DNA of 64,000 nucleotides from Escherichia coli (GTDB taxonomy: Bacteria > Pseudomonadota > Gammaproteobacteria > Enterobacterales > Enterobacteriaceae): NCBI RefSeq assembly GCF_041886205.1, contig NZ_CP169029.1. One strand, written 5' to 3'. Both the position numbers and the translations under genes were made by a program. Numbering within the stretch: the first letter of the stretch is position 1; every line of letters begins with the position of its first letter. The notes beneath the pieces are model-generated. The model saw nothing but the letters and a program-made list of their open reading frames with translations, ran no database searches and was not told the DNA's origin. Positions 21,098 to 22,774 of the stretch are shown here, piece by piece.

Positions 21098-21117
21098 AAC
21101 TTCAAACTCCGGCGTCA

Positions 21118-22587
21118 CTATTTTTTAGCATTCGCATCCAGCGGGGCGGCATAACAACTGTAAGTAAAACATTCGCTGGAATGATTGGCGATATCTTTAA
21201 AGTTGCTTTCAGCAACCCCCTCGAACATGAGTACCGTTCTGGATAACTCTCCGTTTTCATTTATATGTGGAAAATCAAATTGGCTACTGAATCGCCATAC
21301 ATCTGTCTTTTCTGGCTCGCTGTTCACAGAGATACGTCGATGGAAGACCCCTCCTGAAAACGTGCGCCAGAACAATAGTTGATCAATATCTTGTAATATC
21401 GCAGTCTTGGATGCTATTTGACGTAGTAAACCTGCATACCGTGGACTGCCATTACGAGCAACATTATGCAAACCCTGACTAAAAGCATCAAACAAACAAT
21501 AGATGTGATCACTAGTGAAAAAAGGTCTTAATTTTTTTTGTTCTTCATCTCTGTAATCCAGGAGCATCTCATTGATTTCTTCCGGTGAGAAATTTAAGAC
21601 AAAATTATCCTCAGGATTTGATTCTTTCTTGTTTTTTTCACTATTCTTCTCCTCAATGGTCTTCGCATTTTGTTTCGCAATTATTTCCGCAGTTTTTTTC
21701 GCATTTTCTTCCTCAGTTTTTTTCGCAATTTTTTCCGCAATTTTTTCCCGAGTTTTTGATTTTAGACTAACACCATCGATGTCAACCGGTGTTGTTTTCA
21801 GATCTCTCTGCGCGTCTTTCAAATTTGTCTTATAGAGATCGGGCACTTTATCGGCAGATAAGTATCCGGATGAAGAAATCTGGTGTGTTCGCATGGGGGG
21901 CTGTTCACAAAGCATCGAGGCTATATCGGCTCTAAACTCTTTTACATTAAAGTTATCGGCATTAACCTTCCCTGCTATAAACCCCGCATCGGCAATTTTC
22001 TTCTCTAATTGTTTTGTACGTTTAGAATAATGAGCGTTGTTATCATAAAACTTTTCAAGAAGGGCCCACTCCTCAAGTTGCCTTATGTGATTTTTCAACT
22101 GTTGATGATCTATTTTATATTCATGTGTACTAGAATCATTTTGGTTGCAGGAGTTACAGATTTTTAAGCATAATTTTCCATCATAATTATTATCTATGGT
22201 ATCAGTGAAAATATAGGACACTTCAATACTCTGCCCGTTCTTATCAGTCATCTCATATGACCATTGCCCCGTTCGTTTCGCATTCTTAATGAGTTCGATG
22301 GACTCTGCAGGACAACCATGAAGAATGGGCAGAATTTTATCAGGATGCTTAATGAGTAAAATTATTATATTTACAATATTTGAAAAGAAATCTTTGCTAT
22401 TTTTTATTTCATCGATTTTTTCCGCTGAAATGTTTACTAAGTTTTCATTTCCGGAAATGAAAAGCAATTTGCCATGGGGGCTTTTTTTAAATTGTTCTTC
22501 TGTTTTAGAAATGACATCCTCTTTAAAAGGTGGCAACTCAGTACCAGTAATAAACGGTTTCAATAAATTCGAATTTGAAATTGTCAT
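21118..22587 (-). CDS. Hypothetical protein, 489 aa from the ATG at 22587 (longest ORF extends to 22665); AT-rich accessory gene with a central Lys/Glu/Ala-rich repeat
   Basis: Long intact ORF on the minus strand; GGAG sits 7 nt upstream of the ATG at 22585-22587 (MTISNSNLLKPF...); no homolog recognised from memory; visibly lower GC than flanking genes. Confidence 0.75.
   Translation of the reverse strand: MTISNSNLLKPFITGTELPPFKEDVISKTEEQFKKSPHGKLLFISGNENLVNISAEKIDEIKNSKDFFSNIVNIIILLIKHPDKILPILHGCPAESIELIKNAKRTGQWSYEMTDKNGQSIEVSYIFTDTIDNNYDGKLCLKICNSCNQNDSSTHEYKIDHQQLKNHIRQLEEWALLEKFYDNNAHYSKRTKQLEKKIADAGFIAGKVNADNFNVKEFRADIASMLCEQPPMRTHQISSSGYLSADKVPDLYKTNLKDAQRDLKTTPVDIDGVSLKSKTREKIAEKIAKKTEEENAKKTAEIIAKQNAKTIEEKNSEKNKKESNPEDNFVLNFSPEEINEMLLDYRDEEQKKLRPFFTSDHIYCLFDAFSQGLHNVARNGSPRYAGLLRQIASKTAILQDIDQLLFWRTFSGGVFHRRISVNSEPEKTDVWRFSSQFDFPHINENGELSRTVLMFEGVAESNFKDIANHSSECFTYSCYAAPLDANAKK
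21650..21770. repeat. Imperfect tandem repeat inside the hypothetical ORF
   Basis: Plus strand repeats TTTTTTCGCAATT(A/T)TTTCCGCA-like units; on the coding strand this is REKIAEKIAKKTEEENAKKTAEIIAKQNAK. It also generates spurious plus-strand ORFs at 21572-21835. Confidence 0.7.
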
Positions 22588-22693
22588 ATCTTTGCTCCAA
22601 TACAGGGTTATCCTGGAGCATGTTGTACATAACCTCATGGGCAAAGAATACCAAAAATCGCTCATATCGAACGGGACAAATATTTAACAAACT

Positions 22694-22741
22694 CAGCCCT
22701 GACATTGAGCAGCTTTTTTGCGCTGCGTAGTGTCAGGGCTG
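22694..22741 (-). terminator. Inverted-repeat hairpin downstream of malZ (candidate terminator / insertion boundary)
   Basis: Perfect 11-bp arms CAGCCCTGACA ... TGTCAGGGCTG around a 26-nt loop holding an inner stem and a T6 run; lies between the malZ stop and the start of the hypothetical ORF. Confidence 0.5.
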
Positions 22742-22774
22742 GTGACTAACGACGTAACAAATAAAACAGATGCT

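Follow-up and report, generated by a model that had tools for sequence, protein, structure and literature searches.

An AT-rich orphan gene on a small islet between acpH and malZ in Escherichia coli

The ORFans of Escherichia coli, also called taxonomically restricted genes, are reportedly the subject of a study by Daubin and Ochman from 2004. Here we describe a gene of this kind, an AT-rich open reading frame (ORF) of 489 amino acids which lies alone on a small insert between acpH and malZ, in a window of 64,000 nucleotides (nt) from an E. coli genome (contig NZ_CP169029.1); by the window we mean the whole stretch of DNA that was analysed. E. coli ORFans are AT-rich and narrowly distributed, and show selection against coding loss together with raised nonsynonymous diversity (Yu & Stoltzfus 2012; PMC3514957). 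The class of ORFans with high diversity has been ascribed to weak purifying selection, positive selection or decay (PMC3514957).

The gene between acpH and malZ, hereafter the orphan, resembles these ORFans in having no outside homolog, in being AT-rich and in its patchy occurrence among strains. Its nonsynonymous diversity is far above that of core genes whereas its synonymous diversity is similar, and it falls in the highest-diversity class (PMC3514957). ORFans are described as shorter and are most often found in a single genome (PMC3514957), whereas the orphan is long and occurs in 21% of complete E. coli genomes. Deep allelic divergence, a mosaic allele and an in-frame variable-number tandem repeat also set it apart. 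The orphan is thus an unusually long and widespread example of an ordinary E. coli ORFan, a case of a known phenomenon and no new system. On balance it is probably a real gene, weakly expressed and weakly constrained, carried on a minimal islet which was inserted once, has recombined since and has repeatedly been lost.

E. coli O157:H7 carries small strain-specific islets, the O-islands and S-loops, which were reportedly described in 2001 by Perna and by Hayashi. Like these islets, the block that holds the orphan is strain-specific, low in GC, and interrupts a K-12-like backbone. Unlike them, it is not specific to O157, since it occurs in the enteroaggregative E. coli (EAEC) strain 042, in strains named enterotoxigenic E. 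coli (ETEC), in Shigella dysenteriae and in many commensal or clinical isolates, and it carries no mobility functions.

The insert and its origin

The stop codons of acpH and malZ are separated by 1,677 nt (21098-22774) with a GC content of 37.7%, compared with 50.8% for the window (0.377 vs 0.508), a base composition unlike that of the host genome. The orphan ORF itself has a GC content of 36.9%, and acpH, malZ and queA have 53-55%. At third codon positions the GC content is 0.35 in the orphan ORF against 0.57-0.60 in acpH, malZ and queA, and a sliding-window plot falls from about 0.53 in acpH to 0.33-0.43 over 21200-22700, then returns to 0.53 in malZ. A first-pass annotation, made from the sequence of the window alone, had proposed that a low-GC block splits two genes which are direct convergent neighbours in K-12. 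The composition bears out the first part of this, and in K-12 the two stop codons indeed lie 4 nt apart.

The limits of the block were taken from junction alignments with K-12 and four other Escherichia species. It runs from the last leucine codon of acpH up to, but not including, the malZ stop codon (22775-22777), i.e. 21092-22774, with no strand assigned. The end of acpH is therefore supplied by the insert, where CTC TGA (21092-21097) replaces TTA or TTG followed by TAA. The 4-nt junction of the empty site is found in K-12, in the enteropathogenic strain E2348/69, and in the genomes that represent E. albertii and three further species of Escherichia. This makes the empty site ancestral for the genus and places the origin of the insert inside E. 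coli. The absence of the block from K-12 and the other Escherichia species examined also agrees with the earlier description of a single-gene, low-GC insertion at a conserved junction.

The junction sequence is common to all occupied alleles that were readable there, and acpH ends in CTC TGA at every occupied site and in TTA or TTG plus TAA at every empty one. Because all occupied sites share their junctions and this end of acpH, the alignments show what appears to be one insertion event, of foreign, AT-rich DNA, inside the E. coli lineage. Horizontal acquisition of the islet, which had been suggested in the first pass, is supported by its composition and by the empty sites.

Of the 5426 complete E. 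coli genomes, 1127 (21%) carry the orphan, in one copy each, on the chromosome and always at acpH-malZ, and it is annotated as 'hypothetical protein' in every one of them. The flanking genes were detected in 5424 of the 5426 genomes, and a comparison of the junction, as had been proposed, found about 4300 of the 5424 to be without the insert. The copy of O157:H7 Sakai is ECs_0454 (481 amino acids) and that of EDL933 is Z0502. Intact copies occur in EAEC 042 and strains named ETEC, Shigella dysenteriae also carries the gene, and the carriers include many isolates labelled only as human, extended-spectrum beta-lactamase (ESBL) or wastewater. The 2-kb stretch 20900-22900 is identical to that of E. 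coli wlxctx60, from the faeces of an Asiatic black bear in Japan. The first-pass view of an undescribed gene holds for the function but not for the gene itself, which is catalogued as ECs0454/Z0502 and has the wide distribution given above.

We estimate that an insert would supply an in-frame leucine codon and then a stop in about 0.5% of cases by chance, so the donor DNA presumably already held the gene beside the 3' end of an acpH gene. No donor of this kind came to light. In some Citrobacter, Enterobacter and Phytobacter acpH is also terminated by CTC TGA, which could be a pointer to the donor, but a match of six bases is too short for a conclusion. In other genera the gap between acpH and malZ measures 0.8-5.5 kb and holds an ORF of 200 amino acids resembling peroxiredoxins, with or without further cargo; this gap has no likeness to the insert in DNA or in protein. 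The peroxiredoxin-like ORF (MVLVTR.APDFTAAAVLG...) is conserved 3' of acpH outside Escherichia (loci L022, L038, L041, L048 and others), often with 4-5 kb of further genes that include large unannotated ORFs. Escherichia has lost this content, down to the 4-nt spacer.

No flanking repeats, tRNA genes or mobility ORFs were found in the islet, and an Rfam scan of it gave no match. The neighbours are housekeeping genes (proY, malZ, acpH, queA, tgt, yajC and secDF). The islet would persist by vertical descent and by homologous recombination through these core flanks. By the alignments the flanks recombine freely. Strains O157:H7 (L001), ETEC6335 (L008) and GF66.1 (L014) are near-identical in queA and acpH, and their orphan alleles are 8.5% apart.

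Selection on the reading frame

The orphan ORF lies on the minus strand at 21118-22587, encodes 489 amino acids followed by a TAG stop codon (21118-21120), and is the ortholog of Sakai ECs0454 and EDL933 Z0502. RefSeq holds an identical protein, WP_000155947.1, labelled as a hypothetical protein. The ORF is intact and is preceded by a Shine-Dalgarno-like GGAG (22595-22598, minus strand) 7 nt 5' of the ATG at 22587-22585, as first reported, and the GGAG is kept in 11 of 11 aligned alleles. The next in-frame codon of interest, at 22600-22602 on the minus strand, is TAT in this window and TAG in all 10 other aligned alleles. A reading of 515 amino acids from an ATG at 22665 is possible in this window's allele only, and because of the TAG codon in the other ten, the conserved product has 489 amino acids. 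At this base composition, with a stop frequency of about 0.068 per codon, we estimate the chance of 489 open codons at about 1e-15.

Stop codons are avoided in this frame. A random substitution in the ORF creates a stop 4.4% of the time, so that about 10 nonsense changes would be expected from the at least 232 substitutions in ten intact alleles; none is seen (P ~3e-5). Twelve alleles sampled regardless of intactness hold one nonsense change and one frameshift, both on tip branches. In a set of evenly sampled genomes 56 of 60 copies (~93%) have an in-frame length, although the ORF holds several frameshift-prone runs of six to eight A residues, and the steps between length classes are multiples of 12 nt. 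These steps correspond to a tandem repeat of 12 nt (21664-21757, minus strand; about 7 units, in frame), which encodes four-residue K/E-x-x-A units predicted to be helical and is the Lys/Glu/Ala-rich centre noticed in the first pass. Its copy number differs among strains, giving proteins of 466 to 501 amino acids in steps of 4 amino acids, with one outlier of 479.

Compared with random changes of single bases, the amino acid replacements are biased towards conservative ones (mean BLOSUM62 score 0.03 vs −0.35; Monte-Carlo P ~0.01). None of the eight cysteine sites (outside the repeat) or the four tryptophan sites is replaced in 121 sequences (P ~0.04), and changes at hydrophobic residues are roughly half as frequent as at the remaining ones (odds ratio 0.45, Fisher p = 0.0025). 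Since stops are avoided, replacements are conservative and Cys, Trp and hydrophobic residues are spared, selection appears to maintain a full-length, folded product. The sparing of these residues suggests that fitness would depend on the full-length folded protein and very little on its surface sequence. Together with in-frame insertions and deletions in the intact alleles and a low, non-zero level of RNA, these features are those of a real coding sequence.

Constraint on individual amino acids is nevertheless very weak. We compared orphan alleles from complete genomes with acpH, malZ and queA of the same strains. The pooled ratio of nonsynonymous to synonymous divergence (dN/dS) of the orphan is 0.70 for ten alleles and falls to 0.64 when the mosaic alleles L008 and L014, which raise divergence in residues 276-400, are left out (pooled values 0.64-0.85 overall, 0.6-0.9 in round figures); for acpH, malZ and queA it is 0.03-0.06. 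Variable sites at codon positions 1, 2 and 3 number 75, 61 and 86 in the orphan, which is not gene-like, and 5/3/35 (acpH), 20/10/106 and 5/2/57 in the flanking genes. The ratio of transitions to transversions is 96:116 against about 3:1 in the flanks. Synonymous divergence (dS) is 0.05-0.08 in the orphan and 0.08-0.12 in the flanks, and because of this similarity the orphan alleles would be about as old as E. coli core-gene diversity. Residues 401-489 are the least variable part (dN/dS 0.41). Outside the repeat, polymorphic sites are evenly spread over the 121 protein variants (index of dispersion 1.12, p = 0.32).

These rates are what would be expected if the ORF were functionless, i.e. a foreign gene which lost its role on arrival and is decaying. 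Nonsynonymous and synonymous events number 106:40, compared with 3.27:1 under a neutral spectrum (binomial p = 0.28), and the event counts give an omega of ~0.8, with a rough 95% range, by our own estimate, of 0.6-1.2. The transition bias also fits a neutral spectrum, the codon positions are nearly equal and variation is uniform. Expression is very low, and pseudogenes have arisen independently in at least four lineages. There is a K219* nonsense allele (L009), a +1 frameshift in a poly-A run at nt 949 of the gene in O145:H28 (L012), and a frameshift near codon 62 (L101), the two point frameshifts being in or beside A-runs. In O55:H7 USDA5905 (L015 2601-2936) a deletion took most of the orphan and the 3' end of malZ, and the remnants of both are annotated as partial pseudogenes. 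The K219* change, the O145:H28 frameshift and the O55:H7 deletion are, however, all tip events. A decaying ORF should also show the missing nonsense changes on the allele tree (0-1 seen of about ten), would not be expected to keep its frame in ~93% of sampled genomes or to change the length of its repeat only by multiples of 12 nt, and should not spare Cys, Trp and hydrophobic residues or favour conservative replacements. We therefore consider it rather unlikely that the ORF is without function.

The mosaic alleles also argue against simple decay. The 461-amino-acid allele of L008 and L014 carries, at residues ~263-400, a segment which is about 20% divergent and lacks the repeat, and even this segment is in frame. 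In a third strain the divergent segment reaches further towards the C-terminus, and this copy is frameshifted. A word-indexed search with the divergent segment returned only truncated or frameshifted copies of the orphan gene. From its divergence of ~20% it would seem that a more divergent allele lineage exists or existed, with records from E. coli only.

Expression of the orphan has been recorded in the EDL933 transcriptome of Landstorfer et al. (Table S4), where Z0502 has 0-8 reads per kilobase per million reads (RPKM) across 11 conditions (PMC4048457). In lysogeny broth (LB) media the values are 8 in LB, 3 at pH 9, 1 at pH 4, 8 at 15 °C, 5 with nitrite, 0 with antibiotics and 1 on solid medium; in the other conditions they are 2 in minimal medium, 4 in spinach juice, 2 on radish sprouts and 1 in faeces (PMC4048457). 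In LB the RPKM is 8 for Z0502, 13 for acpH and 46 for malZ (PMC4048457). A scan for sigma-70 consensus sequences found no convincing promoter in the 187-nt spacer upstream of the ORF. No main-text mention of ECs0454/Z0502 was found in the literature searched, and the supplements of two enterohaemorrhagic E. coli translatome papers are without either name.

An open frame with almost no constraint on its amino acids could also reflect selection on translation or on the DNA itself, e.g. through antisense transcription into acpH driven by translated read-through, or through a hairpin that insulates the acpH and malZ transcripts from each other. The end of the ORF and the acpH stop codon are 20 nt apart. 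A strong hairpin follows malZ (22694-22741, minus strand), an inverted repeat with 20-nt arms that are 85% complementary and a loop of 8 nt; it starts 33 nt 3' of the malZ stop codon, is followed by a T-rich stretch, and its arms are largely kept across alleles. A scan for consensus terminators did not call it. It is probably a malZ terminator brought by the insert, and in the empty 4-nt junction malZ lacks one. The 190 nt upstream of the ORF are also somewhat more conserved than the ORF, with variation in 14 of 190 columns against about 10-15% of ORF columns. However, conservative replacements and spared Cys and Trp residues point to a folded protein, such a role would not require anything like 1.5 kb, and 79% of E. 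coli do without the insert. Pseudogene alleles moreover persist in successful lineages such as O145:H28. A role of the translation or the DNA alone is extremely improbable.

The protein and its possible roles

The orphan protein would be a cytoplasmic protein of three parts, with an N-terminal alpha/beta region that holds a cluster of cysteines, a helical linker whose length varies with the 12-nt repeat that encodes it, and a C-terminal alpha+beta region. No signal peptide or membrane segment is present in its sequence. The N-terminus reads MTISNSNLLKPF, and no variation is seen at residues 1-13 among the 13 sequences of alignment A1. The N-terminal region (residues 1-275; 21763-22587, minus strand) is predicted to be mixed alpha/beta in a low-confidence model. 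It contains a cluster of cysteines, C140-x3-C144-x2-C147 (22147-22170, minus strand), which together with C92 is, speculatively, a candidate metal site. For the C-terminal region (residues 331-489; 21121-21597, minus strand) helices and then an antiparallel sheet of three to four strands are predicted. The AlphaFold2 models have a predicted local distance difference test score (pLDDT) of 36.8 for the full length and 52.2 for residues 331-489, and in a Foldseek search against the PDB the best match has an E-value of 0.15 and a template-modelling score of about 0.3, so that no fold is assigned. The C-terminal ~170 amino acids were first thought to be a separate globular domain; the predicted alpha/beta structure agrees with this, but with pLDDT values of 37-52 the proposal is weakly supported.

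The orphan protein is a true orphan without a known family, as had been suspected. Sequence searches of Pfam, NCBIfam, PADLOC, PHROG and the PDB gave chance-level matches only, mostly in the low-complexity repeat. An exhaustive phmmer search of 1.84 billion representative proteins returned one full-length cluster and its fragments, and no relative outside Escherichia/Shigella. A search of 5.8 billion proteins gave 379 matches; the 120 listed are 88-96% identical, and the sources named among these 120 are E. coli, Shigella or Escherichia sp. No relative was found in 100,044 species-representative genomes, and Salmonella, Shigella plasmids, Citrobacter and E. albertii gave no homolog. Searches of phage and plasmid collections with tblastn gave two matches only, both to E. 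coli chromosomes labelled as plasmids. These records (NZ_CP141089.1 and NZ_CP134663.1) are listed as plasmids at 4.9 Mb and are evidently chromosomes, one of them being titled 'plasmid unnamed1'.

Three candidate identities were considered and set aside. A radical S-adenosylmethionine or iron-sulphur (Fe-S) reading of C-x3-C-x2-C has no Pfam domain behind it, only a sub-threshold match to the ArrB Fe-S model (E = 0.086; 12.3 bits against a cut-off of 450). A papain-like Cys-His arrangement in the C-terminal part, with C364 at the start of a helix and H416 and H441 in strands, has no structural or profile support, and the candidate acidic residue E456 is a glycine in allele P0140. A WxxxE motif at W174-E178 was judged to be due to chance, as the protein has four Trp residues and no Map/IpgB-like similarity.

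Several type III effector families of E. coli are encoded on the backbone, e.g. the EspY/SopD-like, EspX and EspL families, and these have homologs in Salmonella, Shigella or Citrobacter as well as Pfam models. Like them, the orphan is a single AT-rich gene outside prophages, lacks a Sec signal, has a polar N-terminus, and occurs in strains both with and without the locus of enterocyte effacement (LEE). Unlike them, it has neither homologs in those genera nor a Pfam model. The first-pass annotation likened the polar N-terminus to a type III secretion signal. For a protein of this kind, delivery would be through the LEE or the E. coli type III secretion system 2 (ETT2), and weak constraint would follow from diversification driven by the host or from the decay of ETT2. 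Residues 2-26 are indeed 40% Ser, Thr, Pro or Asn, the top value of 59 proteins of the window, and the invariant residues 1-13, the absence of a Sec signal or membrane segment, the modular build with an internal repeat, the AT-richness, the presence in O157:H7 and the high dN/dS could all belong to an effector. The gene is also intact in EAEC 042, which we take to have an intact ETT2. The Ser/Thr/Asn/Pro-rich N-terminus is real but may not be distinctive, however, since PpnP and YaiY, two ordinary proteins, tie with it.

Other evidence also speaks against an effector. No similarity to effector families was found in Pfam, the PDB or the 1.84 billion proteins, or among the genera named above. 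Clinical and ESBL isolates and ETEC as a rule lack the LEE. The LEE-positive strains E2348/69 and O26:H11 have no orphan gene, O145:H28 holds a frameshifted pseudogene of it, and in O55:H7 USDA5905 it is deleted. Intact copies are found in 042, which is LEE-negative, as well as in strains named ETEC and many clinical and ESBL isolates. The presence of the gene thus does not track the LEE. It lies outside any prophage or effector locus with no chaperone gene beside it, and no mention of the gene was found in the literature searched. The proposal of a type III effector has accordingly lost ground, and we regard it as distinctly improbable.

The other function suggested in the first pass was a one-gene anti-phage defence. 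More broadly, the orphan might be a new kind of single-gene defence against phages or competitors, kept polymorphic by an arms race. Like the single-gene defence systems of PADLOC-DB, it is accessory, variably present and fast-evolving, and its presence/absence polymorphism, high dN/dS, mosaic alleles and variation in repeat length could all be read in this way; low constitutive transcription is compatible with defence genes as well. Unlike those systems, it matches no PADLOC model, the best match being to Cas7e at chance level (E = 0.034, aligned across 70 residues in the repeat region), and it has no nuclease, NTPase, TIR, SIR2 or other enzymatic or sensor domain. No defence island, prophage, integrative hotspot or other mobile element adjoins it among its housekeeping neighbours, and none of its copies is on a phage or plasmid. 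Variation is even and is not concentrated in a recognition surface, and dN/dS is never clearly above 1. With no defence-family similarity and no such context, a defence role is not supported, and we give it very little credence.

A related and wider idea is that the orphan encodes a conflict factor of a new fold that is specific to Escherichia, whether an effector of the cryptic ETT2 or the LEE or a factor against phages or competitors. In that case the near-neutral dN/dS, the mosaics and the variable linker would be due to diversifying or frequency-dependent selection and not to relaxed constraint. The effector and defence ideas have no positive support beyond the features of any fast-evolving accessory gene, and we hold a conflict factor to be unlikely.

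Several points also weigh against our preferred reading of a real, weakly constrained gene. The main test for stop codons used intact alleles, and the case for function rests on 10-14 nucleotide alleles and 121 protein variants. The missense pattern is statistically indistinguishable from full neutrality, and recombination makes the event counts approximate. Expression was recorded in a different strain and under no condition resembling infection, and no protein-level evidence (proteomics or ribosome profiling) was found for the orphan. The description of domains depends on models with pLDDT values of 37-52. A high dN/dS, presence/absence polymorphism, mosaics and variation in repeat length are also expected of a gene in an arms race. 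With these points in mind, the orphan may best be seen as encoding a dispensable accessory protein needed under specific conditions, which would be under weak or intermittent selection and drifting to loss in some lineages.

Neighbouring accessory DNA and significance

Other parts of the window also differ among strains. The spacer between queA and acpH (20424-20515) is 92 nt long here and in O157:H7, 218 nt in RIVM_C037791, WP7-S18-ESBL-09 and 042, and 295 nt in Rb-50. These differences in length suggest a small element in some strains, similar to repetitive extragenic palindromic sequences or of another type. A second accessory block lies between ppnP and rdgC (37972-40703, minus strand), with a gene for a 759-amino-acid DUF2773 protein and one for a 151-amino-acid protein of the 'SF0329 family'; in EAEC 042 this region holds only a DUF2773 remnant and ykiD. 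Upstream of tauA (63152-64000) there are genes for a response regulator and a MASE1-domain sensor kinase, and EAEC 042 has yaiO, an acetyltransferase gene, yaiP and a PIG-L remnant instead.

The acpH-malZ islet provides a clean case for the study of how an ORFan arrives and persists, as the insertion point is known to the base and the ancestral empty site is also known. A long gene has been kept in more than 1100 complete genomes, and its frame has stayed open while amino acid change has been almost free. If a function is found for the orphan, it would bear on the biology of pathogens, including O157:H7, O145:H28 with its pseudogene, EAEC 042 and Shigella dysenteriae.

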